A DNA stretch of 64,000 bases from Paramecium tetraurelia (Eukaryota). The position numbers and the translations under genes were made by a program. Positions 10,985 to 60,155 of this stretch are shown piece after piece. Position 1 is the first letter of the stretch. Every line of letters starts with the position of its first letter. The DNA is taken from the NCBI GenBank assembly GCA_000165425.1, contig CT868130.1, positions 186,001 through 250,000 of the forward strand, written 5' to 3'. Under the pieces are notes generated by a model, which did not search any database, had not been told where the DNA came from, and was given only the letters and a program-made list of their open reading frames with translations.

Positions 10985-12204
10985 ATGGACAGATTTATTC
11001 CGAAAAGTAAATCGAAATTGTTGTATCAATCACACACTTAATCAAATTATAATGATGTACTTGAATTCAATATCCTAGTTATTGTATCATATAAATGAGG
11101 AAAAAGTGCTGAATTTTGGAAATCAAAAATAACAGCAGAATTATCCAATATCATTTTTAGACTAGTTACATAATTAATACAGATTGCCTACCTAATAAAC
11201 TGTTAGGTAAATTAGTTCAGTCCCTGAGAAAATATTGGATGCACCAGATATTGCAGATGACTTCTATCTCAATATTTTGGAATGGGGCAATAACAATGTG
11301 TTATCTGTGGGATTGCAAAATAAAGTTTATTTATGGAATGCTTCAAATTGTAACTTAATATAACTATAAAATAGAGCACATTGAATAACTTTTATAAGCA
11401 ACTTCGAATGTTACAGCAGTTCATTGGATCAATGATCATATTTTAGGAGTAGGATTTGATGATGCCTCCATTAAGATAGTGGATGTTTGTTCCTAATAAA
11501 CAATAACCTAGTTATATTATCATAATGAGAGAGTGTCAACGATGAGTAGCAGTTTTGAATTATTGTCAACTTCTGGTAGAGATAACGTTATTTTCAATCA
11601 TGATCTAAGAGAGAAGAATAATAATGTTGTAGGCGTATTTCAGAAACACACTTAAGAAGTTTGTGGATTGAAATGGAATTCCTCTGGAACTACTTTAAGC
11701 AGTGGAGCAAATGACAATTAACTCTTATTATGGGATAAAAGGCAAATGTCTTTGCGTTTATCATGTGAAGGTCATTGTGCAGCTGTCAAAGCTATGGCAT
11801 GGTGCCCATGGTTGCCAAACATCTTAGTTAGTGGAGGAGGTTCCAATGACAAAAACATCAAGTTTTGGAATTCCGATACAGGTTTATGTTTCAAAAGCAT
11901 AGACACTGGATCATAAGTTTGTGCCTTATAGTTTTTACCAAGATATAGAGAACTGATATCATCACATGGGTTTTCCAAATTCTAAATTAGTATATGGAAT
12001 GCTGAAGTAATTCAATAGGCCAAATTGGTCCAAGAACTTTAAGCTCACAAATCGAGGGTGTTGCATTTAGGCATATCTCCTGATTAGTCTATGTTATGTT
12101 CTGCTGCTGGGGATGAAACTTTGATATTTTGGAGACTTGGAACTGAGTAAAATAATTAAGATAAGTAAGAAATGTGTTCCAGCAAAAATCTATTTCTCAG
12201 ATGA
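10985..12204 (+). CDS. CDC20: Cdc20/Fizzy family APC/C activator (WD40), 390 aa
   Basis: C-box [59 protein letters not shown] and a C-terminal ...LFLR (IR-tail variant). Introns at 11057-11078 and 11350-11374. Confidence 0.92.
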
Positions 12205-12257
12205 TATTATATAATTACTACCTTATAAATAATTTAATAATTAATTATCTTTCTATA

Positions 12258-14250
12258 ATGATTAGAGGAGACTCCATTGAGTTCAAGCATCTTGCAAATA
12301 GCTAGGTAGTAATTTGCAAATCTAGCAAAGAAATTTAAGATGGATAAGCCTCAAGAAGAGATCATTTATTCTAAAAATTACCCTCCTTAGATTGCACTTA
12401 ACCTAATAAAATTTGGTAAGTAAAAAAAGGAGGATCTACAAAATGTATTCTCGACTCTGAAAGATTGTCAACTGCACAAAAACCACTTACTCCCTAATAA
12501 TTATAGAAACAAAAAAGTTAAGTAATCCAAATTGAAGAGAACAACCAATTTGATCTTGGTTCAAGTCTTCATTTCTAAAGATTATTTACTGTAAAGAATA
12601 AAGTTAAATCGTCTAATGGATGTGTTAAGACATCAAGAGATGAAAACACAAGCATTGTCAACAGTAATATGGTTCTCAAAAAATCTTACTATCATCATAC
12701 TTAATTATCATAAACACAATCTTCCATCCAATTTTAGTAGTGTCCATTTTAATCAGGAAAATCATTTAAAGATATTCTATCTTAATTTAAAGATAAAAAG
12801 TATAAAATTTAATTAAATTTAGACCTAAAATTGGAACTACAAGACATAGTGAATTCGAGAAAATGGAAGGACTGGATGACTATGCAAAGGAATTTGGATA
12901 AATCTTGGCTTAGGATTAATTAGTTGGACAGGTGATTGGAGATGCTCATGTGATGAAAGGAGTTGTTAAAGCATTAATAGATTTAAGCAATGGAAACAAA
13001 TTGCCATATCATTTTGAAAGTCTTAAACAATTGCATTTGAATCTCAACATAACTGATGAGATGTTCAATCGATTTAAATATCTCTATATAAAAAAACTAA
13101 TAGATATGAAAATAGGGATGGAAGTCATATTTAAATGTGCATAAACAGTTGAGTATTACAGAGGAGCTATTATATGCAATGTATCCATTCTATTTATTGT
13201 AATAGTCTCGCTCAGTTCAAAATGTGAAAGATAGTATAAGAACAATAGCCAAAAATATGTATGCTTAAATTTTTGAAGATTTCTCATTGACTCCATTGTT
13301 CAAAGGAACTAAACAAGAGGAACAAGCGATCAAATTTAGTAGAATCTTTGGGTTCATCTTAGGATCTTCAGAATCTACTAACTATGTGATGGACTCAATG
13401 AGAGACTTTCACAAAGCTTTTCGGATTAACTCTGTTTAATACTCTGTTTTCAAATACTACTTATCAGGTGCTTTATCTAAACACGCCGAAAAAGATGTAG
13501 TCTGGTATATACTTGAATAAACAGATGCCTACAAAGCTGCTGTGATTGATTAGGATAGCATCAAAGATTTAGTTTATAAATAATTTGGCATAGATAACTT
13601 TTGTAGTGAATTCATTAAGCTATGTTAAACCGATCCCTATATCAATAAGAATTTCATACATAAGATCGGATATGATCAATTTGTTTAACATACTAAATAT
13701 TTCCTTACATTACGCGTTTAACAAATAAAATAATTGCTTTACTCTTGAAGATCTTAGTTAATTGCATTGTTAACATTAAATCAATTTACAATTATATCAG
13801 AGTATAAAAGAGAAGTTGATAAATTTGTTGGCAAGACTCAATCCTTAAAGAGTCATCTTTTAGGATTTTGAAGAAGAGTTTGATCTCATATTGCCTTACA
13901 TTATCAATAAAAAATTACCTTGTGATATTGTGGGATAAAAGAGACTGTGTGAGTTTGTTCCTTTGATTTCTGATGAATTGCAATCTAATGTCGAGATCAA
14001 GAACATTTTTGATAGCAATGATGCAAATGTCACAAAAACTCTGCTCAAAAAATTTGAATATTTGCTGTCTGGTAGGAAATATTTTAAAAGATCAGATATC
14101 TAAGCTATACATTCTAGACTTATGATTAGTGAGGAGGTATTTGAAGAATTTATTTATATTATCGAAAAAGTTATCTAATAATATGATACTTCACTTTTAT
14201 GGATGATTGAAGCCATAAAAGAATGGAAATATATTATAATAACTGTCTGA
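12258..14250 (+). CDS. multidomain protein: N-terminal low-complexity extension plus four tandem truncated (2/2, group I-like) globin domains, ~647 aa
   Basis: Four ~115-aa units each carry a proximal-His motif: LKQLHLNLNITDEMF, MRDFHKAFRINSVQY, LSQLHCQHQINLQLY, IQAIHSRLMISEEVF. Unit 2 has MYAQIFED..TPLFKG..EEQ..ILG. Introns at 12800-12822 and 13181-13205. One extra base near 13703. Confidence 0.75.
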
Positions 14251-14492
14251 GTAATTTGTTTTGTTTTGGTATATAGTGTTAAATATAAGTAATTATTCTT
14301 AATTAAAATAATATTTAATACAATTGTTACTCATAATTTATCAAATGTTATATTTTTATAATATTTGCCAAATAATTGAGATAAAGGAAAAAATATGTTG
14401 ACGATTAATTTTTATACAAGTCTCCAATTTTGAATCTGCAAATATTATAAATTTACTTGAAATTAAATATTAATGATTATTAAATTATTTAT

Positions 14493-15176
14493 ATGTTGAA
14501 TTCAACTGCCTCAAACCAAGATGAGATCATCCTCAAATCATCGAGAAGGTTTGTACTAGCAGATCAAGTCAAGGATTTGGAATCTGCTCCTATCTATCGG
14601 CCTAAAAGATCAAGTAAAAAAGTGAAATTATCACTTGTAACAAATCAACCTTTTACTTAATCCAAAATTTGTTATATTTGTCGTAAAAGCTGTGTAATTA
14701 AATTATGTAAATGCGATGATATATAATATCATCCTGATTGTGTGATTGCTGAACTCAAGAAGCCTTCATCCTCAATATCAACTTTGCAATGTCTCTTTTG
14801 TTTATGTTTCTTTAAGACTGAAATTAAGAATAAAAAGTATTACTTATTTTGAAGCTATAGATTTCATTAAAGATAAGCATATCGAAATTGCACAATCATA
14901 CTAGTTATCTTAATTGCCACTCTCTTAATCGTAATAGGAGTACTCTGGAATACGCTTGCTGCAGAAATCACAATATTCTTATTTATTATCACTCTACTAC
15001 TCTCCCTGATCGCATTATATTGCTACAAAAAGCTTTATTACATTGAAATAGAGTGGAGATTAGTACCAGTAGAAGATGAACTAATGGACCTTTCGGGTTT
15101 CGATAATGCAAAATTAATATACCAAGCCTTCAATACAAATACTGCCCATTATATTTTAGATACTGAAATGTCATGA
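14493..15176 (+). CDS. RING-variant (C4HC3, MARCH-like) protein with two TM helices, 227 aa
   Basis: ICYICRKSCVIKLCKCDDIQYHPDC...QCLFC, followed by two hydrophobic segments. Intronless, 684 nt. Confidence 0.75.
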
Positions 15177-19314: not shown

Positions 19315-20903
<1,589 letters not shown>

Positions 20904-20949
20904 AATATAATTTAATAACATATAGCATAAAATTTAAAATAATCATTAT

Positions 20950-22860
20950 CATTATTCTTTTGATCTACAAGCATCTTATATAATAAATTAGGTATTACAT
21001 ACTTTTATAATAAGAGGAATATTTTTGTAAATTTTTTTTAATTTTCTTACTCCTTAATTTATTTTTTTTCAACTTCCTGAAATTTTAGATGTTTATTAAT
21101 TAGTTGGATTGTACTTTAGAATATTCTTCAAAAGCATAAATTGATTTAACCATCTTATAATAAATTTTGTGGTCTCATTGATAATGTGAAATCTACGTAT
21201 TATTCATTTAATTCCCCTTCTGAATGCATAACTATTATAACTCAATTAAGAGAATCTTTATCTAGAGGATCGTATCTAATTTTATGTGTTAGTATCAAGC
21301 TTTTAATATCCTTGCTTTCCAATTCAAAATGAATATTATTTTATTTGATTGATATATACCAATAATTTAATTTATGAAAAAATCAAATGAACAACAATCG
21401 TATACACTAGAATGTGAACCTCCCCTTAAAAGGCATCTTTATTCCATTGAGAATTTCATTAAACTGTTTTATATTGTTTTAGTATCCTTTTAATTTCACG
21501 CCTGTTATATTGGAATAATAAGCTCAGTTTTAGGGATGATTAGGAGAAAATCCATTCACACTGATTTTACAATGAATATACTGTATTTAATGAATATTAG
21601 TTTTTTTAAATGTACCAACAATTACATGTATCATTTACCTATTTTAATACATTATATAGTTGGTATTTCAGAATACATCAATTTACGAAGAGGATCTATG
21701 TATCAAAGTAAGAAATATTCATATTTTACAGCATGCAAGAATTTTGTTATAACAATATAATAAACTAAAGAATTTTTTTTAGATTTTAGATGCAAATATG
21801 AGTTTATGCTTGTACCTTTAAGTGTAGTTATGGTAATTGTGAGTGATTCTTCATGGTGGCTAGTCATTTTGCACTCATTTTACGTTATAACTAAAATAGT
21901 AGCAATAAAAGTATTTCATAATAAATAATATTTAGGATATGTTTGATATTTATATGAGTTTCAGAAAGAAAATTAGATTGTGATTATTGTAATAATTCTT
22001 TAAATAATAATTTACTGTGATTATTTATAATTATTCGATTAAGCAACTAAGCAATGTTTAAATTTGCATTCTTGATAATTGCTTTGTTAAATTAATAAAA
22101 ATTAGATTTAGGTATAAACTTGATTATCCATTCTGTTTAATAGTTTAGAGAACATTTGACATATAATAATTGATGTTAATTCTTTGATATAATTTAATTG
22201 AATAGTTGTTATTCAAATAAATATTCTTTATAAACTTTTTTCATTCAGTTATCTATAAATTTGTTTAGCATTTTATCTTTCTAAATTATTTAATATGATT
22301 TTATTTTTTATTTTTTTGAAATATTCTATCAAATCCTATTTTGTTTTTAGTTATTTTTTTAGGGTTAAATTTAAAAACATTTGCAGAATCCTTATAAATG
22401 AAGTTTCTATGGTTTAATAAAAGAAAATTCAGTAAGAGAAATATCCTAATTATGCTGTTAATCTCCTAAAAAACATTTTTGGATAAATTACACAAACAAC
22501 CTCTATTAAGTTGATTAAGAATTGTTATTTGAGGAAACAAAATAACTATAAATTTTCATTATAAAACCAATTAGTTTAATAATTATTGAATATCTCAAAT
22601 TTGTAATAATTAAAATTAGCTTTCTGAACTTTTGAATTCAGCAACAAAGCTATTATCTTTACTAAATATTCTAATTAAGAGTAAAGTTCTTTAGAGTTCA
22701 CAAAGGTAAAAGCACATTATTTCTTCGAGTCCTTATAATATAAATTAGTTTAAGTAATGGAAAAGCATAAAATTGAATAGTTAAAAGAACTATTAAATAA
22801 ATTTTATATTTGTTAAACCTTTTTTATTTATTTTTGATTGTATCTTATGATATATTTAAA
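20950..22860. pseudogene. heavily decayed coding remnants (minus strand ~21000-21450, plus strand ~21530-22800)
   Basis: Short coding-like stretches broken by TGA and frameshifts in every frame. This gap is far longer than the usual intergenic spacing here. Confidence 0.35.
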
Positions 22861-29020: not shown

Positions 29021-31576
29021 ATGATTAGAATACTGCAATAATAATAGTAGTTCAGAAATAAAGTGAGGTATTCCTTAACACATTCTGAAGCCAAGTTGAG
29101 AAAATCATTATTCTCAAACTCTCCAATTGAAACTACAATGTTCATTGAGCTATTAAAAGGATAAAAGTACAGAGGAATAGCTTAGATGAGTTTCTAATTG
29201 AAAGAAGCAAAGTCATTATTTCTTGACTGCTAGGGTTAGGATATATCTTCATTGATTGTTAATAATTAAACACTCTAAAATGTTAAGCAAGATGGAAATA
29301 AAGTATGGATAGAGTAAGGTTTGAAAAAGGATTAAAATAGAATAGAAGGTATAATAAGCATATCAGTATATAGTCTACTTTCAGAATCAGTACTCAACAA
29401 CAGGTCATGGATTGCACAGTTTTATGGACAATGAAGATCAATATGTTTATTCATAATGTGAACCTCATCATGCATCCAAAATGTTTCCGTGTTTTGATTA
29501 GCCTGATTTGAAGGGAACATTTAAACTATTTGCCTATGCACCCAAAGAATGGAAAGTCATTAGTAATGAAAGATATCTAGAAAATCCCAGAATCCCTCAG
29601 TTTGTTTAAGAAAAAGGGTATTTTCCTTTTGATTAACAATATAAAATATGGGAATTCGATTAGACAAAGCCTCTATCAACTTATTTATATGCAATCCTAG
29701 CAGGACCTTATGTAGAAATCAAAGCACCTGAGGAGTTGTTACATAATTAAATTCCACAAAGTTTATATTGCAGAAAATCCCTATTAAAGTTTGTTATGAA
29801 TGATGCATATTCTATATTCAAAGTGACTTCAGATAGTATGAAGTTTTTCGATGATCTATTTTAATACAAATATCCTTTTGGAAAATATGATTAAATCTTT
29901 TGTCCTGAGTATTCGACTGGAGCCATGGAGAATGCAGGAGCAGTAACAATTAATGATTTGTATGTTTTCAAAGAACCTGTGCCCAAATCTTAAGTGGCTT
30001 CCAGAGCTAATACAATAATCCATGAATTATCTCATATGTGGTTTGGTGATTTAGTAACAATGGAATGGTGGGATGATCTTTGGTTGAATGAGAGCTTTGC
30101 TGAATTCATTTCCCATTTATGTTAGGATAATGTTTGCTAAGGAGAAAAAGTAAATTATTGGGTATAATTTTTGGAAAGAAAACTATGGGGTTACGTAACA
30201 GATGAGAAGTCAACTACTCATCCTATTTATTGTTAAATAGACAATACAGATTAGGCTGAAAATATATTTGATGGCATTACATATGCCAAGGGAGCTGCTT
30301 TGATTAAATAGATTTACTTTACAATGGGAAGAGAAGGATTTTCAAAGGCAATGGGATTATACTTTCAGAAACATGCTTATGGGAATACAAAACTAAGTGA
30401 TTTCTTTGAATCTATGAGTATTAATAAAAATGTGAATTGGGAAGAATTTAAGTAAGAATGGATTATGACATCAGGATTTAACGTTCTTTCTTATACCACT
30501 GAAACTAACTAGATAGTCATCAAATAAAGTGGTTCACATTTAAGAAAACATGCCATTACTATTGGTTAATTCGTTAATAATTCATGGATCACTCACAAGA
30601 TTCAAGTTGATGCTAAAGAAAAACACAACTGTAAAAATTAACAATTTAAAAGAAGGGAGCTTACTCATTCTCAATTATAATGATGAAAATTACATCAAAG
30701 TAAGTTATAATAAAGAATTAAACCTAATAAATCTTACAAAATTTATCAACAATTTAAAATAGTTTGAATCGATTATTGGTTCTTCAATCTATCTTTGATT
30801 AGGTTAGAGATGGACAAACTTGCTTTTTGGATTTCTAATAAGGTGTTTCTAACTTTCTCTTGCATGAGACCGATGATACAGTCATAAAAATTATATTGAA
30901 TTGGTGTGCTGCAGGTGTTAATAATTATACACCCTATAGTTATAGGGCAGCAGTAAGAGAAAACTTAGCATCTACAGTAAAGTAATTGATTGATTGCACT
31001 TAAGAATAGAGCAAATTGCTAACCTTGAGATCTCATTACATCAGTTGGTCTAGAACAATTGAGAGATTGTCATCTATTAATATTGAGGAGATTGGAGTGA
31101 AGGATGGTTGGACTTATATTTATAATTAGTTTTTATATAATAAAGTTCAATGGAATCTCTATGATAAAGTGGCTCTTAAGGATGCAGACCATAAGAAACA
31201 CAAAAGGTTCTTAGAGTCTTTGAGTGTGGATAGAGATTAGCTTTGGTCATATTTCATGAATTTTGATAAGAACGAGAGTGTTTAATAAGTATCTTAAGTA
31301 ATGAGAGCATTTAATCATGAGAAATTTATAGATTAATTGGAAAAATATGAGGTAAGATTTTTTGAAGTCATCGTTTAAATATTTGAGACAAAGGAATCTG
31401 AATATGCTAAGGCATTCTTCAACAATCTATATCCAGTAGGTGAAAATCTAGAAGCTTATCAATAATTATCTAAGGAGGCACTTACTAAGACAAAAAATGA
31501 CTTTTTAACTAAGTTATTAAAAGAGGCTATTGATATCAATGACAAAAGATTGAAGGCATACAAAACGTTTAAATGA
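29021..31576 (+). CDS. M1 family alanyl aminopeptidase (aminopeptidase N), ~840 aa
   Basis: [46 protein letters not shown] and [10 protein letters not shown] 25-nt intron at ~29349-29373. Two extra bases near 30624 and 30758. Confidence 0.93.
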
Positions 31577-31763
31577 GTTATTTATAGTTTATTCTATTTA
31601 TTTAGAGGATTGTTTATTATATGCCTTAGAATTTTTATTATTAATTTGTGATTATAGCAAATAGGGGTTTATAAATTGGAAAATTTAAGTAATAATAATT
31701 AGATACCAAGATAAAAAATTTATATAGATCTCCAATCGTATTAAAAAGCAAATGAATTAAATA

Positions 31764-33633
31764 TCAATATTTCTCATAAAGCAATACATAGGCTGATCTA
31801 TCAGATAATTATTTCCCATTAATCTTTGATACATTTTCATCATCAAATAAATACCAATTATCATATCTTTCAGCATAGGCCTTATAATGTCCACCATTAA
31901 TCTAACCCATATGAGTGATAAGAGCTTTTAGTTTATATTGAGTTTGCAACCCTTTGGAGCAGAATCTACAATAAAATAATAACACTACTCTTAAATATCC
32001 AACTTTTCAGGGTAGGAAATAGAATCATTAATCTTTTGAGAGGTTGGAAAAGTAGTAAACCTTTTGAATTGAATGATTAGATATCGAGGAGTCTAACTAA
32101 TAAACATCCTCCTTTTAACTGATTTATTTGATTTCTTGCACTTGTCACATTTCCAAGTGTCATTAATAACTTCTTCTCTATAGTAAGATTTTAGACAGTC
32201 CATCAAATCAATTCCAGTATATGATTTACTAGGAATACTTCTAATACTCTTACTTAATTGACAAAGACAAATCCCAGATCGGATCATACCCCTCACAAAC
32301 TTAATTACAAGATTTACAATAAGATTAACTTGTAGATTACCCTGCAAAGATTAAATCAATAATATCTTGATTTTTGGATGTATAATCACTCCAAGCTTAT
32401 TCGGCTGAGTTGAATTCTTATTTATTCTTATATTTGCCAACCAGTTCTTCCTGAATCTTCCCCAAAAAAAACAAAAGAAATTCATGACTATCTTATTATT
32501 AATTAAATTGGAATTTTCCAGAACATGCATCCCAAACACTCTTGGCTGCTATTGAAGAATAAGAGCCTGTTTTTTTAATCTAAAGCTATAACAATAAATA
32601 TAATACTGATCTTAATAATTCTTAATACGCAGTAAGGAATTTCTATCCATATTTTGGTTGAATTGCTAAAATACCTTCAGTAAGGGAGTCAATGCTCAAG
32701 AGAACTTGTAAAGCTGAGTTCAAATAACAATAATATCTCGGATTTGACAACCCAATTATTGGAATTTAGCCTTGAGAAGTGTAAGTTATTTTTTATTCTT
32801 AATGTACTTTTCTAGAATTTTGAGCACTGTCGTTTCTTGATTGTGATTGTACAATCTGCGATACTTGTCTATCGACAGATTTTGGAGTCGCCATGACTGA
32901 AATGGTTTAGGCCATAGGGTTTTATTGAATGAATCTTGAATTGGTTTATGTTTATCTCATAGATGATTATTGTATTGGTGGCTTAGATTGAGTGTTATTA
33001 ACACTGGATTATGGTTGTCTTGGTGGTTTAGATTGAGTGTTATTAGGTTATGCTTAAGATTCGGGTTTCGGAGGAGGCATGATTTTTAATTCTGGACCTC
33101 CTCCATACATCTACTGTATGAAGACCCAAGCTTGTTCATTTAGGGCGACATAGTCTCCATCCTATTTCAATCCACTTTTCAATTACTAATTAGGTCCTAC
33201 AAGTTTTGAGTTATTTATTTATCCAATTCCAGGTTTTCCTTTTAAATGATTTGTATAATTAACTGCCCATGTAAATTCGAGTGCATATTACTGTTGTACA
33301 TTCTCTTTATTTATCAACTAGGTAATGTAACTTTGTTCATATTAAACACTAAGAACTTAGGATTTAAATACCTTCTCTCAAATTAACCTTGCTCACGTAA
33401 GTCTTTAATCTATTTCATTTGTCTCAGCATTTCCTAATTTGAGTTAATTTTTATAAAAACTTAGTCAATTTGTTTTACAGGGGCAGGTGGTGGAACATAA
33501 ACTTTTTGGGATTCTTCTTCCTTTTTCAGAGAATGCGTGTCGGAATTGGTGGATGGCTCTTCTGGCTTGGCACTCTTCCTAAAATTCCAAAAAACTACTT
33601 CGATTTCTTCTTTTTTGAACCGCAACAGAACAT
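31764..33633 (-). CDS. ubiquitin-specific protease with an N-terminal DUSP domain
   Basis: DUSP: IGQINNSKL..DYVALNEQAWVFIQQMYGGGP. Cys box GLSNPRYYCYLNSALQ, QQQDSHEFL, WKCDKC and His box HMGQINGGHYKAY..WYLFDD. Confidence 0.9.
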
Positions 33634-40784: not shown

Positions 40785-43700
40785 ATGATATTTATTCTTC
40801 TATGGTTATCCTTTTCATCAGTTTATTCTATAGATAAATGTCTTGAATTTAGAACTTAATTGGATTGCGTTTAGAGCTCAGATAGTCAGTGTATATATAA
40901 ATAAAGGAATTAATAGGTGTATGGGATTCTGGGTATTGCCAATACACAAAAAATTTAGAACTTGGCTGTTCTAACTTACTGAATAAAATGGCCTGTATAA
41001 AATAATTAGCTTATCCATCAGGCTAAATAGCTAAATGTAATTGTTTTTATAAAACCTACAGGTATTTTTATGAAAGTGTGTTAACAGGTGTATGATTTAA
41101 CTTAATTGGCATGCACTGATACAATTACTAAACACTCTTGTTTGAGCATTTAGAATATCAATTAACTTTGTTATTGGGATTCAAAGTCTTATACCTGTAA
41201 TGAAATAAAAGAGTAAACATATTAGGAAGATTTTGAGGATGTTCTTTATAGTGCATCTGTGTGTGGAAGGATTAAAAGTAAAAAAAACTCACATATTTAG
41301 ATTACTTAATAATTCACAGTTCTTTGATTTGGCCACTTATTTCTTACACTCCAGATTTTGCATCTGAAGCTTAAGACATTTACAGATAGGATTTAGGTTT
41401 GGAGAAACAGAGCTCAAACAAAGAATATGATGGGGGTTTATTGGCCAACAATAAACTGTATAATAAATGTAACGATGGCAACTAAGCCACCTATTTTTAG
41501 TGGTATCATTTTAATGATGCATAGTCATATGCTCTAAACAATTGTAATAAGTTCCTTTAAATTTTTTAGTAAAAATAAGCGATAGAACGAGGGAGGGATG
41601 CATTGCGTTGTAGATTGCAGATGATAGTGATTATTTGTAGATATTTTCAACAAAGATCGAGACAATCGGAATCAATCATATTTATTGTAGATATCAAGGA
41701 GGGATTTTTACTAATTATAAATGCTTGTATTTAAACAGCGAATTAGATTTGAAAGACAAAAATTTCTTGTTAGCCAATAAGATATATTGTGATCAACTGA
41801 ATTTGAACTAATGTCAATATGTAGAAGCAGAGTGCTATCCGATTATGTTGGATGGAAATAACGAACAAGAAGTAACATGCACATTTTCAGAGCTGAAACT
41901 ACAAGAGGCTTAGGGTTGCTTATCTCAAACATAGTAATATAAGACTTATAGGGATTGTGCTACAGTGACTGATGCAAATTAAGGAAGTTATTTGGATATA
42001 TCCTAAGTTCCCTCCGTTTGTAGTTCAAGCTGTGTAAGTAAAGAGTAGGACAATTGTGATGCCAATCTTTGTAAGTGGATAGATGAACAGCCTGATTTTT
42101 ATGGTTGCATTCCTAAGTTTGGATGCAACCAGCCAGGAGTGAATCGTCATTATTGCATCTATATGGCTTAGCCTTGCTAATGGGATGTGGATTTAAACTA
42201 GTGCAAATTAATCTATGATTACGAGTTAAATATAATAGAATGCAATGATGCCATGTCTAAGTTTTTATGTGGAAGTATTAGGACAATGGGTTAAGAGTGT
42301 ATATGGATTGACGAGGACGAAAAATGCTTAAATGTTATGAGTGTTCCTGCCCTGAAGGTGTTTACAGCTTTCCCTTCTAAATATATTGTAAATCGAAATC
42401 TTTGCATGAATTACAACGGAAAGCATCGATATCAGAATTTTAAATGTCCAATTTACACAACAAGTGGTAGTTGTGCCACAGAAGATCCTAGTGAATTTAC
42501 TAAGCAAATGTGTTTAACTACAACAAATTGTCATTGGGACACATTATATTAACGATGTTCATAGTATCAAGTCAAATCAAGCTGTGAGTAAATGGTGAGT
42601 GTTTCAGCTGATGCATGCAGTTTATTTTCAGATTGCTTATATGATTAAGCAAGCGAGAGTTGTAAGGCTTAGTAGACTAATTAAAATTGTAATACCCCAG
42701 GTTTAGCAAAGGCTAAATGTTTAGCATTAGATGATTATCCATGTTAATGGATAGGAGGAAAATGCAATTAAGTTACTTAATTTAGAGAATTATGTACTTC
42801 ATATAGAAATGTCAGTAAGTTGGTTTGTACTTCTTTGGAAACTCAGTTATGTTAATATTCAAATGGAAACTGTTTTTTAGTTGATGTATAGCCAACCAAT
42901 TGCTCAGACACTTATAATCGTTATGCCTGCCAATATAGCACAGATAAATGCTACTTTTTTAATAACAAATGTCAAAGCTTTACAACTTAATAACTCACAT
43001 GTACAGGATATTATCTGACTCAGAAGGCTTGTCAAGCAATTACAACTCCAGGGTAGGAATGCATTTGGCAATCAGATCAGTGCATTTCAATTAATAAAAG
43101 CGTTAATTGTTTGAGTACATCCACTTTTGTTTTGAATAAATTGGCGTGTATTGGGATTTCAGCAGAGAGGTCTGCTTATTTGGATGATCAGTTTTATTGC
43201 GAATACAATGATACCACGAATGAATGTAAATCTAATGTAACAGATATTGTTAATGATTGCGGAACTAGTTTGAATCTCAATAGACAAAGATGCAGTGCTT
43301 TTACAACTGGAAGGTTTTGTCTTTTCTAGGATTACAAATGCAATGAGATAAATTTGAATCACAAATATTGGGATGATAAATTAGACACTATTAATTGCGA
43401 GTAGGCCAATAAATCCCTATGTAGATTTGTTCGAGGACGAATATGCTAATGGGTTAAGCAAACATGGGCTGGCTATACTGATTAAAGATGTGCCGAAGTT
43501 AAAATCTTTAATATAAGCTGTCTCGATACTCTTTCTTATGTGGAAAAACCATATTTTAAATCCAAATCCTATAATCCTCAATCATGCTCAGCACTCATGC
43601 GTTATAGCGTGATTGAAAGATGTAAGCCTTCAACTGCCCCAGCTGAACTATACACTAAATGCGTAGTTGATGATGACAGCCCAAAAAACTACTACTCTTG

Positions 43701-46700
43701 TGAATAACTTGGAATCAGTCCCTCAATTTGCGTGACTACCACTTATGGCAAATGTGCTTATATCAATAATGTTTGTGTTCAGGCCCCTGAATATTCGTCT
43801 ACTTGTTCCACTCTCAATAAATTAGGCTGCCTTAATTCCAGATCTTATTGCTCCTTGTTATCTGGATACACATTGAATTTCGATATGGGAAGTATCACGT
43901 CGGATGAATATGTTACCCAAGTGTGTGATCTACAACAATCCAATTAATCGTGTGATTAGTTCAAATATGACATGTAATCATGGACACTCTGTAGTGGAAT
44001 ATAGAAATGTTATGGTAGATATTAGTCTTGCATTTTGCTATTAAATGCAGAGACTCCAATCACTAAATGCGATTCTCCAGGTGTTAGTTAATATGTGTGT
44101 TTGCATTCTGATATGATATGCTAATTCAGGAATAGTCGTTGTTAGAGTATATCAACAAATAGATGTGAATTCGAAACCACTCTGGAGGATTGTGTTCAGA
44201 ATTTGTATTACAATTGCGTGTATTCAAATAAATAGTGTTACACTCAAAATTTAATAACCAAATGTGACAAGTATAGCTACACTAATAAGAAATTCTGTAG
44301 ACAATATCCAAATTGCAGATACGACTCATCAACTTTCAAATGTATTGACCTAGCAATGTTGATGGATGTTTAAAATAATTTAGTAACCTATGCTGTTAAT
44401 TGTTCAACTTATAAAAATCAATTTGATTGTTTGAATTAATGGTAAGTTCAATGTTAATATTCGAGCAGCCTTTGTTCTGCTCCCTCCACTACACCTTCAT
44501 CTTGTCCTCATTTACAATAATATAGTAAAATATTGTGTTAAAGATTTGAAAATTGTGATTTCAAATTTGGGTATTATTGCTTCGACAAGACCTAAACCTT
44601 AGATTGCACAAAATTGTCAGAGACTCTCTGCGTCTAAGATATAGATTAAAGTCTTTAATGTTATTGGGATGGAACCACATGCCAGATAATCAATACCTAA
44701 ATATGCAGTGATATCTAAAATAAAAAAATAAATTACTTTGGTTGTTAAAAAGTGAGTTCTAATGATGGTTCTAAATGTTTTTATTCAGAAGAATAAATGT
44801 TTTGTAAATTGGTAACTGAAGTGAATTAATGTTCTGATTTCACTACAAATATTGGATGTGCATTAAGAGCATAAACACCATGTATTGTAGCCAGTCCAAG
44901 CACAGATAGTTCAAGTTGCTCGACTGCTGCATTAACATTCAATTCAAAATTGAATCAATTTGGATGTACTCAATTAGTAGGGAACGTTTATAGATATGAC
45001 ATGTATGAATATGAATGTAAATTATTAATTGCCACAGAAATGAGTGGATGTGAAAATTTGAATTTTAATGCTTGTATCAAGAGTACAAGTATTTATTTGA
45101 CTTTGATGTGTGCATGGATAAACCAAAGATGTTAGTAAATCAATGATTTTACAAATGTAAATGATTGCACAAAATTAAATAAATACGCTTGTATGAAAGT
45201 TGAAAAGAATGACTTAATATGCAAATGGGATGACACAAACTTTTGTCTTGCTTCTACTGAGAGTTCCACTTGTGCATCAATTTCTCCTACAACACCAATA
45301 ACAAGCGATGACTTTCCACCAACACCGTATGTTAAAGCATCAGCTCCTTACAACTCTCTTAGTTTGTGCAGCAAGGGAGAAAGTACGAAGGCATGTATGG
45401 CAAAAGTAGGACAATAAGGTTGCGTTGAATTCAATTACACAGTGGAGATTTGTTCAGGATTAGGTTTGAATAAGAAAGCCTGTATAGAATAGACAACAGG
45501 ATATTGTATTTGGTTGAATAATCAATGTCAAAATGCATAATTGGATAATTAGAGTTGCACAGCTTAAGTGAATAAGAAAACATGTTTAGCTATGAATGAT
45601 GAAATGTGTCAATGGAATGTCAGCACTAACACATGTTCAAATATCACATTGGTTGAATGTTCAGATGCAACAACTTATCTTTAATGTATGAATGTACCCA
45701 ATAAGGAATGCTACTATATCAATACATGTCAAGAGTTGAACATTCTCCCTTTGGTTTGTAAGAAGGGATTCAATAAAGTGGCATGCAGGAAAGTTTAAAA
45801 TCAAGTTTGTTAGTTTTCAAATAATGAATGTTCTCTTATTGGAGAGTTCGATTACTGGTAGGTCTGTCCATTATATAAGACTTTAGCTACTTGTCCGACA
45901 TCAACCTGTCAATGGTAAAATTCACAATGCATTATAAAAACTGAATGTTTGCATGCATAGTAGTCATTGACAACTCCTCTTGATGAAATTCCACATATGT
46001 TGGATATATGTACAAGCATTAAGTTATCTGCTTGTATTTAAATTTACAATAAGATTGGTTGCATGAAAAGTAGTCTATATTGTAAATGGGATGATGTTAC
46101 TGGATGCTCTTCCTTTGTTACATATCTGAACACAATTACTTGCGATGATTCCATCAAATATAATAAAAAGGTTTGTGATAAATATGCTCCAAAGTTCTGC
46201 GAGTTCAAAGATGATTCCTGCTCACCCAAAATTACTGATTACTATTTTACTAATATTCCCTCTTAAACCTTAGCAAGTACTGAAATTAATCAAGATATTG
46301 AAACTGAATAGTGTGATTTTTACACCACCAGAGAATCTTGTCTTTTATCTACCAAATTTGCATGTAAATGGACTGGATTTTGTGAATCCTTAAGCAATAA
46401 TGAAATCAATATAACATATTCTGAACTCAATTTGAAAGCATGTATCAAATTCAAATAACAATGGAGATAAAGACAATGTATAGAAACTAGCTTTTTATTC
46501 ATGCCAAATGAAGTCATAGATCGAAACATCCAAGTTTGTGAAACTCCATTTATTTCTAAGTCTACTTGTTTGAATATCAGTGCTTAACCTTGTACATTTA
46601 ATACCGCATATAATAAATGTGAAAAAACTACCTAACTATCCAATAATTGCTCCTCCTATGTGAACGTCAATCAAAAGACGTGTTAATTGCTGAAAAACTA

Positions 46701-48282
46701 TGATTGCCGATATAATGAACTGACATTTACATGTGTAAGTGTAAATTAGAATCAATTACCTTCTAATTTAGATGGAGTGTCACTTAAAGCCTGCATCTCC
46801 TTATCTATTCCAGTATATTGGAATGATGGATGCAAATAAGCAACCAAATTTTAATGTGATTCTGTTTATAAAAGTTCCCCTTCAGCTTGTACATTAGCAT
46901 TAGGTCCTTGCATTTATGATCCATCTACATCCTAATGTGTGTCCACCTATAATATAAATTCAATATAGTGTGACACTCCAGGAATCAGCCAAGAACTCTG
47001 CACTTCAATCCTCAGATAACCTTGTATTTTTAAGTCAAATCAATGCTAAATAATCCCAAACACATATTCATGTAGTCAAGCCAAACTTGTTAATCAAATG
47101 GCATGTGCATCTCTAAATTAATCCTGTGTCTACGATTCCTTAAATTAATCCTGCAAGGCTGTTATTTAAGCTTTGAAATGCTCCTCCCCAGGATTATCTA
47201 AGAATGCTTGTCTTCTAAACCCATCCTGTGCTTTCAATTATGACTACACTTAATGCTAATGTTAATACATTTTATCACCATAAATTTGTCACAATCTTTC
47301 AAGTACTGATTGCTCAGCAAATTCCTCATGTTTCTATGATACACTCCTTCAAATATGCAGACGTAAATATTGTGAAGATCTAGCACCAAAATAATGTGTA
47401 GGATCATTGGAAGGCAAACAATGTTACCTCAACAATAGAAATAATTGTTAATCTGCAGGGAAATGTGAAGATATCATCCATATTGATAATTCCTATTGTG
47501 AAGATATTTTCTTTGATGGATTCCCTTGTTTAGGTTCCAATAAGAGATGTTTCAGCTAAAATAACTTTTAGGATTACTGTCCCAATTCTGACTGTTCTAA
47601 TAATAGTTGTAAATATAATCAATAAAATGTCTGTCAAGCTTTGACTTGCTTTTAGCTTGAAGATTGCTCAAAATTAGGTAATCATTGTCTCCAACTATCG
47701 GATGGTTAGTGCATTGAAAACAATAGTTGTCAAAGCCTGGAATCAGATATGTGCAATGGTGCTACTGTTCGGACTTAAGCATCATGTTTGTTGCAGAAAT
47801 ATAATCTCTATTTAGAGGATGTCATGTGTACCTCGTAAGTATGTGAATTATACGGTATTTCTGACTTATGCAATGGAAATGAATATAATGGATACACATG
47901 TTTATTGGTAGATTAAAAATGCATCCCTTGCGATTAGATCCTTGATGTTTGCACTTGCATGGAAGCTACAGGAATATGCTTATGGAAAAACAATAAATGC
48001 CATTCTGTTTAATGTAGTGAACTGTTAAATGCAGCCTCGTGCAATTCCTTATAACGATGTTCTTGGAGCAATCTCAATAATGCATGCATGATCCATTGCA
48101 ATAAAGTCATCAACTCAGATGATTGTGATTCCAGAACTGGAGAATGCTATTTTGATTATGCAACCAATTTCTGTTTTGCCGGAATTTACAAGACACCCAA
48201 TCTATCTATTCAGATAGACATTTCATCGATCTATGCAATATATCTGACATTGTCCATCATTACATATACCTTGATTTTATGA
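40785..48282 (+). CDS. giant cysteine-rich surface protein (surface-antigen-like, ~2,400 aa) with signal peptide and C-terminal hydrophobic anchor
   Basis: Starts MIFILLWLSFSSVYS. Dozens of LNKxAC..C.W/Y...C periods. Four 5' introns (~40890, 41037, 41278, 41545), then one ~6.7 kb exon. Ends SIYAIYLTLSIITYTLIL-TGA. Confidence 0.85.
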
Positions 48283-48837
48283 TATATTGACAAATTAAAT
48301 ATTATACCTATTTAATCTACATTATACTATATCAAAATAATTATATAGATATATAGTTTCATTATGATATCATTAAAGAAGATTAGGTAATTTGAAAGTA
48401 TTTTCGATTTGGATTACTCAATATTTCTTATTCTCTTTTTCTTCAATAATCGGAAGTACTGGAATAAGAAATCAGTAAACTAATGTTGTTTAATCTTCAA
48501 GATATTTTTCTATGTTCTATCATCTTATTTAAAAAAATTGAGGAAGATGGAATTTAAACTGATAAGTATTTCTATTTAAATTTATAAATTTATAAATTTT
48601 ATGAAATATAAATATTTTTGGATGACCTTGACCTCTCTAAAGTAAAACTAATATTTTTAATTTAAGATGATATTTATACATTTCTATCAAATTTTAGGTA
48701 TTATTTAAACTAATGAATGAGAATAGCTAAATATTAGTTTATTTATAAATAAGAATTAAACAGTTAAAATTATTTTCTTTTATTAAAATGCATTAGTTTA
48801 TAGTGAGGACAACCAGATAATTATTAATATTTTAAGG

Positions 48838-50671
48838 ATGAACAAGAGAATAGTGTATCAAGGTGAAAAAGCAACAGTTAAATATGAAGGACCATTAATG
48901 CATGAAAATAAGGGCGATGAAATATGGTTGGGTGTAGAATGGGATTAAATTGATAGAGGGAAACATAATGGCACTGTTTAGGGGTATACTTATTTCAAAA
49001 CCACTGATGGAGCCAATTCTGGCAGTTTATTAAAGAAAGAGAAGGTGAAATTCGGCAATAGATTATGGGAAGCATTGTTTCTGAAATATTTCAAGGAAAT
49101 CCCTCCCATTCTATTGCAGGAAATGCAAGTTTAAGAATAAGTTAAAGATGAATTCCTTTAAGAGCATTAAGATTAAGGAAACAATAAAGACTAGAAAAGC
49201 TAAATGATCACCCTTATCAATTAAAAATAAGTGAAAATTGAATTTGATGACACTGCTTTTTTTGAAACAATGAAAATGAAAAAGAAAATGGTTGAATTTT
49301 ATGGATTCGATGAAGTTTATAAGAAACTAAATAATTTAGAGACTTTGTCAGAGCTATCTTTAGAGTCTTAAAATGTTTCAACAATTGGACCATTTGGTTT
49401 TGTTGGAAGTATATTTAGTAATATCAAAATTTTGGGTTTAGAGGATAACTTGTTCCATTCTTGGCATCAAATATTTGTTTTAGTAGCTCAATTGCCAACC
49501 TTAAGAGAGTTGTCTATTTCAAGTAATAAATTATCAAAACTTGAAACTTTTGGATAACAATAAATTCTAAATTAAATATTCACTTAAACTCCAGATTATT
49601 TGATTTATGATTACGAGTAAGGAAAACACTTAGAAATTCCTGTAGATGGCTGTGGTAAACATATAGAAATTTTGGTTTTGATTGATATGTAATTGAATTG
49701 GAAGGATATTTCCTTGATTATCCCTGCGTTTCCAAAGGTTTAATAGTTATTGTTGTGTAAAAATACTTTAGTTGATTATGAGAATTTGTAATTTAGGAAT
49801 ACAGATTTATAAGACTTAAAGATATTAAATTTGGAACAAACTGGATTATAAGATTTTGATTATGTTTAAAAGTCATTTGGAAATCTACCAAATTTAGAGA
49901 GACTTATTTTAAATAAAAATAATTTAATAGACTTACCTTTGGTTACTGAATTTAAAGCACTTAAACATTTAGCTTTAGATCACAATCACTTTGCTATGCC
50001 ATAATTTTTGAATAAAATTGGAAAACTATAATTAAATTCTCTTTCAATAAAACACAATCCATTAGTTGATAAATTTGGAAAGTTGTATCTGAGACAAAGA
50101 GCAATTGCAGAAGTAACTAGTGTTTAAATCATTAATGGCAGCGAAATCACTAAATTCGAAAGGAAGGATTCTGAGATATTCTACTTGAAATCTTCCTTTG
50201 AAGAATACTTCTTATTGAAGAATGTCAAACATTATTATTATGATTATGATGATTTTATCAATTATGCTCAGATAAATCATCCAAAAGCTATAGAACTAAT
50301 AAAGAAATTTGGAAATCCTTACGAAATTGATCCCACTGTTAAAGGAGGGTATACTTAAACCAAATAACAACTCTAATAACCTTAATATTGTACAATCAAA
50401 ATTATTGATCATGTTGGAAAATTATAGGATAAACCTACTTCAAAAAAATTGATGGGAGGCACAGGCTTACAACCTGTGAAACTGATGATCTCAAAATTAG
50501 TGAACATACCAATAAAGTAGATAGCTTTATCGATATAGGTATAATTTCATAACTAAACTTTAGGTAACTGATGATGCTGAAATTGTCAATATGGAAGGAA
50601 AGGACATGACTTTGAATGATTTTGGAGTTCAAGACAATAGTCTTATTCATGTAAATGTACTGCCAGAATGA
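48838..50671 (+). CDS. TBCE: tubulin-folding cofactor E (CAP-Gly, LRR, ubiquitin-like), 602 aa
   Basis: WLGVEWDQIDRGKHNGTVQG, LRRs (LRELSISSNKL, LERLILNKNNL), INGSEITKFERKDSEIFYLK and a UBL ending TLNDFGVQDNSLIHV. Intron at 50539-50563. Confidence 0.92.
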
Positions 50672-52632: not shown

Positions 52633-52768
52633 TCGATAAGTTTGAGTTTTATTAAATATATTTATATATAATAATTCACAATCAACTCATATGATTCAAA
52701 AATATGTCATGTGACTTATTAATTAATAAACCAGTTATTCATTATAAATTTTAAATTCATATTTATAG

Positions 52769-53963
52769 TCAAATTAGATTCAAATATTCTCCTGATTGAG
52801 TCCATTTGGCCATTATTTACAACTATAAAATAGTAACAGTAATTAATTACCCTTCGAACTCGAGTAAGGAGAAGTTGAGCACGTTCATTTTCTTCCAGAA
52901 CACTCTTTAAATCTGTTATAGCTGTACTCCAAGGATATGCTCCATTGGTCAAAAGCAGATGTGCAACATCTAGATGGTTTTCTTAAATCGACAGCATCAA
53001 TGGAGTTCGATATAGGATATCAACTCCATCAATATCAGAATGATACTTAAGTAAAATCTCTACGATTTCAAGATAACCCTTTTTGCAAGCCCAATGTAGA
53101 GCGGTCATGTTGTAAAAATCATATTCAAATACCAAATAAGGGTTGATTTAAAGGTAGTTTTTGATATCTTCTTTTTTGTTCTGTTTGGCGGCATGAATGA
53201 ACTCCTTTGAATTCATCTTTTCATAAGGTTTTTTTGAAAATATTTTATGTTCCATAACATACTTAATGGTAAGACCTAAAGCCTTGATTTTCTTAAGTGC
53301 TCTCAACAGAAATTATCTCAATTGTTTTTTTGTTCTTGGAGGATATGGCAATACGCTTTTTGGAATTTCAGGTTTTATGTAGGGTTGAGGTTAAACTACT
53401 TTTTAAGGCTGAATCTATTTCTTGCAAATGCTTGTTGTGTCTACATGCAGAGGGGAATGATTAAGTTTTGTAATTATGTTATATAGTTCTTCATTTGAAT
53501 GGTCGCTTTATTTTAATCTAATAAACTTATGCACACTCCTGCATTGAGACGATGATTTCTTGCTTGGCTCAGTAATAACCCTTGTTGACGGTAATTACAA
53601 TGGCCTTCTTTTGACTGGAAATAATTGTCGTCCCGTTGGAGTATTTTTAGGAATTGGTATTTATATTGAAGGTCTTTGTACTTTCAAGTCTAATGTGCTT
53701 TGCAGGGTTTCACCAAAATCAACTATTTATTTCAAAGAATGGCTATGCAAGAATTCCTTTATCCTATCGTTGGGAGCAGACAATTTATTTTTTTTTAGTA
53801 AGGTGATCATTTTGTTTGGAGGTAACATAAAGAATCTAAATTCCTCCTTCTTGGTTTCATTTTATAGTCTTTTTGGGTACCATGGTCTATCAGTCTTAAT
53901 TTCCTTTGGAGTTAGTTTACATTACTATTTAATGAGTCTCCTATAATAATCTTCAACAAACAT
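52769..53963 (-). CDS. ankyrin-repeat protein with a low-complexity N-terminus
   Basis: DFYNMTALHWACKKGYLEIVEILLKYHSD and DILYRTPLMLSIQENHLDVAHLLLTNGA. Intron at ~52823-52850. Confidence 0.85.
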
Positions 53964-54130
53964 TATTTTTAATTAAATCAATCTGAGTCAATATTAAGAA
54001 CATTTATTACACACAAATAACATAAATATACCATATTTAAATTATATCAATAGGACTACATTGATTATACAATTGATTTCCTCTAAATTTCTAAGTATTT
54101 CCTCTAATTTTTCAGGTATTTGAGCATCAT

Positions 54131-58393: not shown

Positions 58394-60155
58394 TCATTTA
58401 TTATGTAGAGAACTTTTCAATCTTGAAGTACTACTATAGATGTTTTGCTAATTTAACGAAGTAAGGGTATTCACCCTCTCTTACAATGGCTTTTGCTGTT
58501 AAACATCAACTTAAGAGGAAGTTCCATGGCCATTACCACCACTTAACATTTAACTAAGTATCTCTTTAGTGTATTTAAGTCTTTTAACCATTTAGTTGTT
58601 TTCGCTTTCTAAAGCAGTGCTTAACATATAGGTTGATTTAACTAATTCCTTATCGATATAAGTAACCACCTTTAATTATTAAGTCAAAATAATTTGTGTA
58701 TTATCATTAAAAACTACTTAGACAGTCTTATCAGAGAGTCTAAAAATGATGGCATGCTTTGCCTTCATCCATTTTTTAACATAAATTTTTTGCCAAATTT
58801 ATTAATCAGTTTCATTAACAATTTCATTTTCTATTAAGTATCCCTTAAAATGAATCATCAAAGTGGATTTCTTTTGCATATCTGGAGTTTGTTCTCTTAA
58901 GGTTCCTTCCTTTTCTTCTCCATTTCTATCAATATAAATGTATTTGCTATGATATTAAATGATAAAATTACTCATCATTCAACATCAGCATTTTTGAACA
59001 GTCATTATAAAAAACTCCACATTGAAAATTATTGAAAACATATCCCAACCCATATTTACTTGAATAATCAACCCTGAAATTAAATTAATATAATTACCAT
59101 TTTTTAACATAGATTTGTGGCTCTTAAATGACATAATTCTAATTAAGACAACTTTCGATATTGGAACGTAATGGAATTCTATCCATACTTGCATATTGAG
59201 GACGTTATTTGAGATCAAGAGGTCTTTTTTCAGTGTTTTCAAATTTTGGTATACTGGTAGATTGTTATTTCTGATACTATCTCATGTATTATGAGGAGGG
59301 TGGACAAGCCAATGTGCTTAAAGGTAATAATTAAGGAATAAGACCGTGAAAGAATTCGTGATCTTAAATTTCTTAAAGAGTTAATCGTTTAGATGGTTCA
59401 GTGATAAGAATCTTACTGATCAGCTGTCTTGCTGCATTGCTAATGATACTAGATTCAGGGAATTAGTAAGCATTCATTTTGATTCTTCTATAAGTAGTTT
59501 TGACATCAGTTGTTTCAAAAGGAGGTTTGCCAATCAAAAGGGTATAAGCAATAACACCAAATGACCAAATATCTACTTCAAAACTATGACCACTTTTAGA
59601 TTCCAAGATTTCTGGTGCTATATAATTGGGTGTGCCACAAACAGTGCGTTTTCTTTCACCCTCGAATTCTATCAGAGTAGCTAACCCAAAATCTCCTAAT
59701 TTGACTTCCATTTTATCAGACAAAAATAAATTGCCTAATTTTAAATCTCTATGTATAACTTTATGCTTATGTAAATACTAAAGTGCAATTAGTATTTACA
59801 TAAGATAACATTACACTTCAAGTTCAGTTAATCTTTTTCTTCTTTTGAGTAACTCATTCATAGTCTGATTAGTGCATAATTCTAATAATATATAAACATT
59901 TTCATCATCCTCAAAATATCTATGGAACCCAACTATGTTTTGATGCTATAGACTGCGATGTATCTTGATTTCAGACATTAATTTTTATCTTGCTCTTGAT
60001 CTTGTAAGACTTGCCTTGCTAATTATTTTGCTAGCATAAGATTATTCTCCATGCTAAAATTCATAGCATTTTGCAAACCCTCCTTTCCCTAAGAATTTAC
60101 CCTTTACATATTGACGCACAGTTTTATCCTTACAAACTTCCTCTACAATATCCAT
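58394..60155 (-). CDS. PLK: Polo-like kinase
   Basis: [29 protein letters not shown] and [11 protein letters not shown]. Polo boxes [19 protein letters not shown] and [29 protein letters not shown]. Introns at 59074-59097 and ~58947-58971. Confidence 0.95.

Follow-up and report, generated by a model that had tools for sequence, protein, structure and literature searches.

The window, a stretch of 64,000 nucleotides of Paramecium tetraurelia DNA, contains a gene that is intact, transcribed and spliced, and its product is, as judged from the amino acid sequence, a predicted disordered tail of 185 residues followed by four 2/2 (truncated) globin units. According to the alignments, the haem-pocket residues of these units are specific for the position of the unit in the chain and are conserved across the genus. 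Tentatively, we propose a cytosolic protein that carries four haems, divides the labour between its truncated-globin units in a fixed manner, and works as a redox protein that processes O2 or NO and relays electrons internally. What goes beyond fold and residue identity in this proposal, haem binding and function included, we infer.

Gene structure and transcription

A reading of the DNA made from its letters alone (hereafter the sequence-only reading) had predicted a gene in ciliate code 6 with two introns and a single-base indel at 13703-13704. When both introns and base 13703 are removed, a coding sequence of 1944 nt without any internal stop is obtained, and the reading frames as well as spliced contigs of runs X17 and X19 bear out the introns and the code (Table 1). 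For the sequencing check, contigs of four public runs (X11, X17, X19, and X20) out of 24 listed were aligned to the gene; X20 contigs do not reach the introns or base 13703, and three covering runs count at those places. Both introns are spliced out in X17 (depth 17/17) and in X19 (10.6/10.6), which are runs from two studies, and neither is removed in X11 (0/22.2). The RNA label of X17 and X19 is a guess and their status rests on the spliced form; because this form is seen, we consider them to be transcripts. Two X17 contigs (12242-14095 and 14066-14279) comprise the entire coding region.

Base 13703 is absent from X11 (22.2/22.2), X17 (17/17), and X19 (12/22.6, the other X19 contig ending at that place). 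As it is absent from all three covering runs, the surplus base is an error of the assembly and does not exist in the organism. The contigs that lack the base rule out a pseudogene as well as a frameshift, whether genuine or programmed, and a cryptic intron is ruled out by the lack of a suitable GT..AG of 18-35 nt at the shift site. The sequence-only reading would have been undermined by cDNA proving a real frameshift in an unexpressed gene; the transcripts, in which base 13703 is missing, come from a spliced gene. A second X11 contig, at 14076-14494, in which 18 differences are counted and the intergenic stretch is exchanged, is most simply explained as the ohnologous copy.

Table 1. Positions in the window of the globin gene, its parts and its pocket residues (bits and hhalign percentages refer to a profile built from 45 canonical units of truncated globins)
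Feature	Position	Strand	Remarks
Whole gene	12258..14250	+	647 aa, ciliate code 6, two introns, TGA stop 14248-14250
N-terminal extension, aa 1-185	12258..12835	+	rich in S, K and Q; basic (net +14); disorder predicted; intron 1 lies within
Cys-Pro-Phe, aa 162-164, candidate haem-regulatory motif	12741..12749	+	18/18 in own subfamily
Short amphipathic motif (S/T-F-x-D-hydrophobic)	12762..12779	+	once per tail in 7/7 lineage representatives; model helix 170-175
Intron 1 (23 nt, GT..AG)	12800..12822	+	absent from X17 and X19 contigs, retained in X11
Globin unit 1, aa 186-301	12836..13208	+	HisF8 13034; spans intron 2; 34 bits; hhalign 99.0%
Intron 2 (25 nt, GT..AG)	13181..13205	+	absent from X17 and X19 contigs, retained in X11
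Globin unit 2, aa 302-416	13209..13553	+	HisF8 13410; best conserved unit; 32 bits; hhalign 99.2%
Unit 2 TyrB10, PheCD1, GlnE7, LysE10, PheE11	13260, 13299, 13323, 13332, 13335
Globin unit 3, aa 417-536	13554..13914	+	HisF8 13765; candidate bis-His haem; 17 bits; hhalign 96.2%
Unit 3 CysB13 (Cys440)	13623..13625		34/36 full-length relatives; distal side
Unit 3 HisE10 (His462)	13689..13691	+	36/36 full-length relatives; aligned to E10 by HMMER and hhalign
Surplus base, apparent frameshift, in assembly only	13703..13703	+	absent from X11, X17, X19; full-length relatives all read through
Globin unit 4, aa 537-647	13915..14247	+	HisF8 14110; 26 bits; hhalign 97.1%

On the forward strand, a CDC20/Fizzy WD40 gene (11113-12204; Pfam E 1e-86) ends 53 nt upstream of the globin ATG, with no functional link seen, and a gene at about 14490-15176, encoding a Cys/His cluster and hydrophobic segments, follows downstream without a Pfam match at 1e-4; by eye, we take the latter to resemble a RING-CH membrane ligase. 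An open frame of 2254 aa (41518-48282, forward strand), rich in Cys and hydrophobic at its C-terminal end, looks like a surface protein by eye and has no Pfam match. Further neighbours recognized by Pfam are ATP synthase alpha/beta (19702-21144), an M1 aminopeptidase (29325-31576), a DUSP-UCH deubiquitinase (31247-33377), a CAP-Gly plus LRR protein (48721-50571), an ankyrin protein (52707-53987), and a Polo kinase (58929-60194).

Four truncated globin units

That four 2/2 globin units stand in tandem had been suggested by the sequence-only reading, and truncated-haemoglobin profile matches for all four units together with fold matches for units 2 and 3 speak for it. With the profile of 45 canonical truncated-globin units, the real score of each unit was reached by none of 1000 shuffles, and the tail scored like background. 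This canonical profile was drawn from proteins found with the family and is partly non-independent; those of its proteins that were checked with Pfam give strong Bac_globin matches, and the matches of the family profile to PDB entries are independent. A profile of 32 family sequences matched the group I truncated haemoglobin 3AQ5 over unit 2 (E 3e-12) and cyanoglobin 1S69 (E 1e-9), the best stretch of the latter lying in unit 1.

Pfam, which the earlier reading had named as a check, did not call the protein: Bac_globin (PF01152) reached 16 bits (E 0.015) with a unit-2 piece, below the curated cut-off of 21 bits, and Pfam Globin gave E 0.061 on unit 1. Bac_globin matches one of eight close relatives, and paralogues P0024, P0025, and P0027 pass at 23-42 bits. 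Since the unit scores sit below the cut-offs, Pfam by itself is insufficient for calling four units. Weak Pfam matches to Rgg_C, Cas2, WHD_MCM8, and DUF6590 were below cut-off and were dismissed. In single-sequence searches of the PDB, pieces of unit 1 and of units 3/4 and profile A1 remained without any match, and unit 2 gave only weak HbN hits (E 0.17-0.62), ranked below matches to artificial alphaRep proteins that were rejected as chance. The profile of unit 3 alone retrieved no globin from the PDB by sequence and gave one irrelevant match (E 0.71). Best matches in the ESM Atlas were Bac_globin-type clusters or unnamed ones, which at 0.82-0.86 lie under 0.9 and serve as leads only.

In an AlphaFold2 model of the intact Paramecium octaurelia orthologue (P0014), residues 1-195 have a pLDDT below 50, the all-helical core lies mostly at 60-95, and the pTM is 0.57; such a value, obtained despite 30% of the chain being disordered, suggests that the four units are packed in a defined way. 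The model of unit 2 superimposes on 1DLY (Z 15.6, rmsd 2.6, 115 residues aligned) and unit 3 modelled alone (pLDDT 79.5) superimposes on THB4 (6BME; Z 12.6, rmsd 3.0, 117 aligned), so that the predicted structures of both show the 2-on-2 fold that the earlier reading had expected. These fold matches occur at 11-20% identity to known truncated haemoglobin structures, and the models contain no haem. For unit 3, THB4 is followed at Z 11.6-11.8 by 1DLY, 1UVY, and RsbR, a globin without haem (Z 11.6); three of the top four are group I truncated haemoglobins, RsbR is the fourth, and THB4 is within 1 Z of the others. With Foldseek, no match at an E of 0.001 or better was found for the models of units 2 and 3, the first match for unit 3 being THB4 and Synechocystis 1MWB ranking third, weakly (E 0.17). 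For units 1 and 4, a 2/2 fold is predicted from the clear profile matches, and the helix pattern of the AlphaFold2 model is compatible with it. A complex prediction of units 2 and 3 with two haems, run without an alignment, obtained a score of 0.10 and a mark of 0.34 and carries no weight on either side.

All four His codons named by the earlier reading are found at their places in the translated coding sequence, and their residues align to the F8 column, a position occupied by His in all 45 canonical units. The His motif from which they had been recognized occurs five times in the 127,996 six-frame codons of the window, four times inside the globin gene, and at least once in 0.5% of 20,000 shuffles of the core; as the motif was defined from these very sites, this comparison is a sanity check only. 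The likeness of the C-terminal IITV to truncated haemoglobins, also pointed out earlier, is no family feature, other subfamilies ending otherwise.

Relatives and unit phylogeny

The window product is 96.6% identical (625/647) to the intact P. octaurelia protein CAD8136477.1 (P0014) and shares 72-89% of its residues with three records from P. tetraurelia. Its sister in the tree is the P. octaurelia protein (100/97), and the place it occupies is the one expected for a fourth P. tetraurelia ohnologue. A profile search of 1.84 billion representatives returned 37 matches at E 0.001 or better; they comprise three more full-length Paramecium subfamilies that are 22-25% identical, together with short environmental fragments and multi-unit globins of the canonical type. 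The Paramecium bursaria member (P0092, KAM3136492.1) has 609 aa. For the study of conservation, 36 full-length Paramecium proteins, window product included, were compared, and all 36 possess four units per chain; as these proteins are related, the count reflects about five deep lineages. Between subfamilies the units are 16-37% identical. A tree of 72 units groups them by position and not by protein (UFBoot/SH-aLRT for units 1-4: 88/86, 98/96, 99/93, and 60/0), unit 4 not coming out as one clade, as a quick tree places unit 4 of P0027 outside. Grouping by position indicates that the specialization of the units is older than the subfamilies.

The window protein is unnamed in NCBI and UniRef, and all members of the family are either unnamed or carry unrelated automatic labels. 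Among them, the four-unit paralogues P0024 and P0063 (UniRef A0EA34 and A0BK74) are labelled as HECT-domain and FHA-domain proteins, respectively; Pfam finds only Bac_globin in P0024 and in P0025, the representative of the P0063 cluster. Another four-unit globin is the unnamed P0032 cluster (493 aa), with no TyrB10 in any unit and a short N-terminus that by eye resembles an organelle-targeting peptide. Word-based homologue searches gave only Paramecium records, and no named orthologue was found in ciliates other than Paramecium; since the collections searched contain code-6 genes in pieces, the latter result speaks only weakly for absence. A scan of metagenome loci produced 299 pattern matches, none of which was confirmed.

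Haem pockets of the four units

The proximal HisF8 is invariant in each of the four units in all 36 full-length relatives, that of P. bursaria included. Only five of the 17 His residues of the protein are invariant, namely the four at F8 and HisE10 of unit 3.

In unit 2, positions were calibrated by alignment to Tetrahymena truncated haemoglobin 3AQ5 and its Y25F and Q50E mutants, and TyrB10, PheCD1, GlnE7, and HisF8 turned out to be where the sequence-only reading had placed them. TyrB10, PheCD1, and LysE10 are conserved in 36/36 proteins, GlnE7 in 35/36, and PheE11 in 34/36; further Phe residues occur at E15 (34/36) and G8 (36/36). TyrB10 combined with polar residues at E7 and E11 is not encountered in units 1, 3, and 4, and unit 2 has Tyr and GlnE7 but PheE11.

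The loss of the distal Tyr and Gln from units 1, 3, and 4, claimed earlier, holds for the window protein, where B10 is Gly, Ile, and Ser, respectively; the invariant distal HisE10 of unit 3 had been missed. Apart from this His, the distal side of unit 3 has an apolar B10 (Ile/Val), PheE7 (34/36), and CysB13. A second Cys, equally on the distal side, is present at E11 in 16/36 proteins. Without TyrB10 and GlnE7, in place of which Ile/Val and Phe occur, unit 3 looks unable to stabilize a bound gas. In the P0027 subfamily the canonical profile alone sets the unit-3 His at E11, a register ambiguity of one residue that is restricted to this subfamily. Short environmental fragments covering E10 of unit 3 have His in two of three cases and Tyr in the third (P0049, which by eye has no F8 His); the distant unnamed four-unit protein P0048 has His and P0032 has Lys at this position. 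HisE10 is not rare, being found in 6/45 canonical units; this frequency, the P0027 register, and the Tyr of P0049 weigh against the mechanism proposed below.

In the window protein the distal side of unit 1 is apolar (E7 Met, E10/E11 Val), and unit 4 combines PheCD1 with apolar E10/E11. The P0024 subfamily retains TyrB10 in unit 1. Phe at G8 is present in 36/36 proteins in units 1, 2, and 4, and these three units keep the G5/G8 aromatics. Gly-Gly doublets at AB and EF are conserved in group N globins (PMC4720485); no unit of the window protein has one (a single Gly at most), and paralogue P0024 retains them in units 2 and 4. Because of the lost Gly-Gly motifs, we regard the protein as group-I-derived and not as a canonical member of group I.

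Should unit 2 be the sole working globin, units 1, 3, and 4 would be haem-free structural repeats; these three units do lie under every Pfam cut-off, the unit-3 profile by itself lacks a globin match in the PDB while RsbR ties in fold, and no unit has kept a Gly-Gly doublet. The presence of HisF8 in all four units of every full-length protein and the retained aromatics at G5/G8 argue against this reading, and we assign little probability to it.

N-terminal tail

The S/Q/K-rich extension of about 190 residues noticed earlier corresponds to the tail of Table 1, which has neither a confident model nor a globin score. In 31 of 36 family members the tail contains CP[FI], in each case as the sole CP, at a position that varies. 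Shuffled tails of the individual lineages contain the pattern by chance in 0-2% of cases, and window ORFs contain it 0.03 times per 190 aa. The S/T-F-x-D-hydrophobic pattern of the amphipathic motif was chosen after inspection. Both the CP motif and the short helix motif may be of functional interest and are offered as leads.

Haem can be drawn in by CP motifs and passed on to His sites (PMC10377097), and the frequency of CP[FI] would suit a haem store or chaperone whose units shield haem from gas and whose Cys-Pro tail recruits or senses labile haem. In the P0025 subfamily and P. bursaria (5/36) CP is missing, its placement is variable elsewhere, and unit 2 retains the ligand-stabilizing TyrB10/GlnE7, all of which speaks against haem storage and makes it improbable.

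Proposed mechanism and alternatives

We prefer a model with a gas-processing unit 2 and a bis-His unit 3 because it uses most of the anatomy of the protein. In a first step, every unit would very probably bind a b-type haem via HisF8. In a second step, HisE10 of unit 3 would, with good but lesser likelihood, close its haem to give a six-coordinate, cytochrome-like centre that receives electrons from an outside donor. In a third step, unit 2 with TyrB10, GlnE7, and LysE10 would hold O2 or NO, become ferric after turnover and be re-reduced through unit 3, the chemistry possibly being that of an NO dioxygenase or nitrite reductase. Units 1 and 4, with their apolar pockets and Phe at G8, might serve as low-affinity or electron-storing sites, and through the disordered Cys-Pro tail free haem may adjust loading, location, or turnover. 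The earlier idea of a multi-haem protein with unequal sites thus stands as to the four units and their unequal, conserved pockets, its haem part being a prediction; the earlier suggestion of an O2/NO domain accompanied by electron-relay or sensor domains gains, on the relay side, the invariant HisE10 of unit 3, the function being likewise predicted.

Invariance of HisE10 (36/36) supports the electron-relay idea, and conservation of the four HisF8, TyrB10, LysE10, and HisE10 counts for it despite the low identity between subfamilies; the best fold match of unit 3, by less than 1 Z, is moreover the hexacoordinate THB4. A residue at E10 may act as a sixth ligand and promote the passage of electrons (PMC11904497), and His or Lys in this position is a sign of six-coordination (PMC4720485). 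Globin NO dioxygenases of a single domain depend on an electron donor, and electron transfer can be controlled through bis-His ligation (PMC3820574). Chlamydomonas THB10 and THB11 keep LysE10 and are five-coordinate when reduced (PMC7082302), and therefore the identity of E10 does not settle ligation. The tie in fold with the non-haem globin RsbR is a point against a haem-bound unit 3. No reductase domain was detected in the chain by Pfam or among 35 ORFs of the window that were scanned, a partial list broken by introns. In unit 2, Phe at G8, described as blocking the short tunnel (PMC4720485), and the absence of GlnE11, which belongs to the high-affinity Tyr/Gln/Gln set, argue against fast NO turnover.

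Close behind the relay comes a gas or redox sensor, a possible but doubtful reading that draws on the same crowding of the unit-2 pocket, on the missing reductase, and on the conservation of the tail motifs. Closed, slow pockets, to which the invariant Phe G8 of units 1, 2, and 4 is suited, would report O2, NO, or redox state, the tail would signal to a partner, and unit 3 would be a redox switch and not a relay. The tail is indeed long, disordered, and basic, has its short motif in 7/7 lineages, and finds a parallel in the long extensions of Chlamydomonas THB8-12 (PMC7082302); however, Pfam shows no recognizable output domain, the tail is the least conserved part within a subfamily (60-80% as compared to 71-95% for the units), and four haems would exceed the needs of a simple sensor.

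Four units could also provide more capacity or a wider affinity range, and multi-domain invertebrate haemoglobins offer a precedent for such a means of storing or buffering O2. Tyr/Gln/Gln pockets are described as binding O2 tightly and apolar distal pockets weakly, with a low, transport-type affinity (PMC11904497), and the pockets of units 1 and 4 are apolar; Paramecium species have 21-46 globin genes and P. bursaria only 2 (PMC6474222). A bis-His unit would be a poor holder of O2, the sites are unequal and conserved instead of being homogenized repeats, and the family persists in P. bursaria (P0092), so that storage of O2 appears unlikely. We consider that O2 storage, haem storage, and haem-free repeats fit worse than either the relay or the sensor.

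Comparison with known systems

The window protein shares the 2/2 fold and HisF8 with group I (N, T1) truncated haemoglobins (Tetrahymena pyriformis 3AQ5, Paramecium caudatum 1DLW/1UVY, Chlamydomonas eugametos 1DLY, Mycobacterium tuberculosis HbN), and its unit 2 has TyrB10, PheCD1, and GlnE7 in common with them. It differs by its four units, where the solved ciliate proteins are single domains of 116-121 aa, by its tail, the loss of Gly-Gly, PheE11 of unit 2, and the presence of TyrB10 in only one of four units. As in cyanobacterial GlbN, a six-coordinate truncated globin with a distal His, a His is found at E10 of unit 3 by HMM and hhalign, and LysE10 of unit 2 recalls Chlamydomonas THB1/2/4, which are six-coordinate too; GlbN and these THBs are single domains.

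The sequence-only reading had implied that the architecture is new, which is not the case since T1 globins of several units have been described from ciliates by in silico work (PMC7475203, citing Hade 2017, PMID 28394017) and in Chlamydomonas THB5 four 2/2 domains follow one another (PMC7082302). These proteins share with ours the tandem arrangement of group I-type 2/2 units in a single protist chain; from what is described of them, the window protein differs in that it lies below the Pfam cut-off, is position-specialized, and has an invariant HisE10 in unit 3. Many group I units are also present in Perkinsus olseni KAF4665176.1 (P0075, 2375 aa; 16 Pfam stretches), Lacrimia lanifica EP01063_P030903 (P0059, 1882 aa; 12), and the unnamed P0031 (705 aa; 6), in contrast to the family as canonical units that fall outside the Paramecium unit clades. 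The Perkinsus units alternate in two types, and the Perkinsus and Lacrimia records are hypothetical or unnamed.

With flavohaemoglobin and with the nitrate reductase-truncated haemoglobin fusion, both of them NO dioxygenases to which a reductase is fused (PMC3820574), the proposed logic would be shared, a gas-binding haem and an electron source residing on one chain. In contrast to them, the window protein has no flavin or NAD(P)H domain; the proposed relay is itself a globin unit, and an outside donor would still be needed. By Pfam, no fused reductase domain and no output domain as in globin-coupled sensors was found, the rest of the chain being disordered.

Significance

A fixed division of labour between the units may be a new feature. 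In the open-access literature we found no paper on the Paramecium four-unit family or on unit specialization, and no description of a globin whose tandem units act as catalyst and relay for each other; family members may already be among the globins enumerated by Hade 2017 and in the supplementary data of PMC6474222. The boldest version of our proposal, a redox chain built wholly of truncated-globin folds, in which a gas globin, an adjacent bis-His globin, two store haems, and a haem-sensing CP tail were fixed before the radiation of Paramecium, is conceivable but speculative.

In the literature surveyed, multi-unit truncated globins are known from sequence surveys only, and the family is a testable case for why units are chained. 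Its four pockets stay distinct across about 75% divergence, and His462, Tyr319, Lys343, and Cys162 would predict different spectra. If it is true that unit 3 feeds unit 2, this would be one answer to how globins that lack a reductase are recycled. For Paramecium itself, the family has been hidden: besides the window gene, at least seven P. tetraurelia records that can be named belong to it, all of them unnamed as to product or mislabelled as HECT or FHA proteins, and automated counts of globins may miss them.
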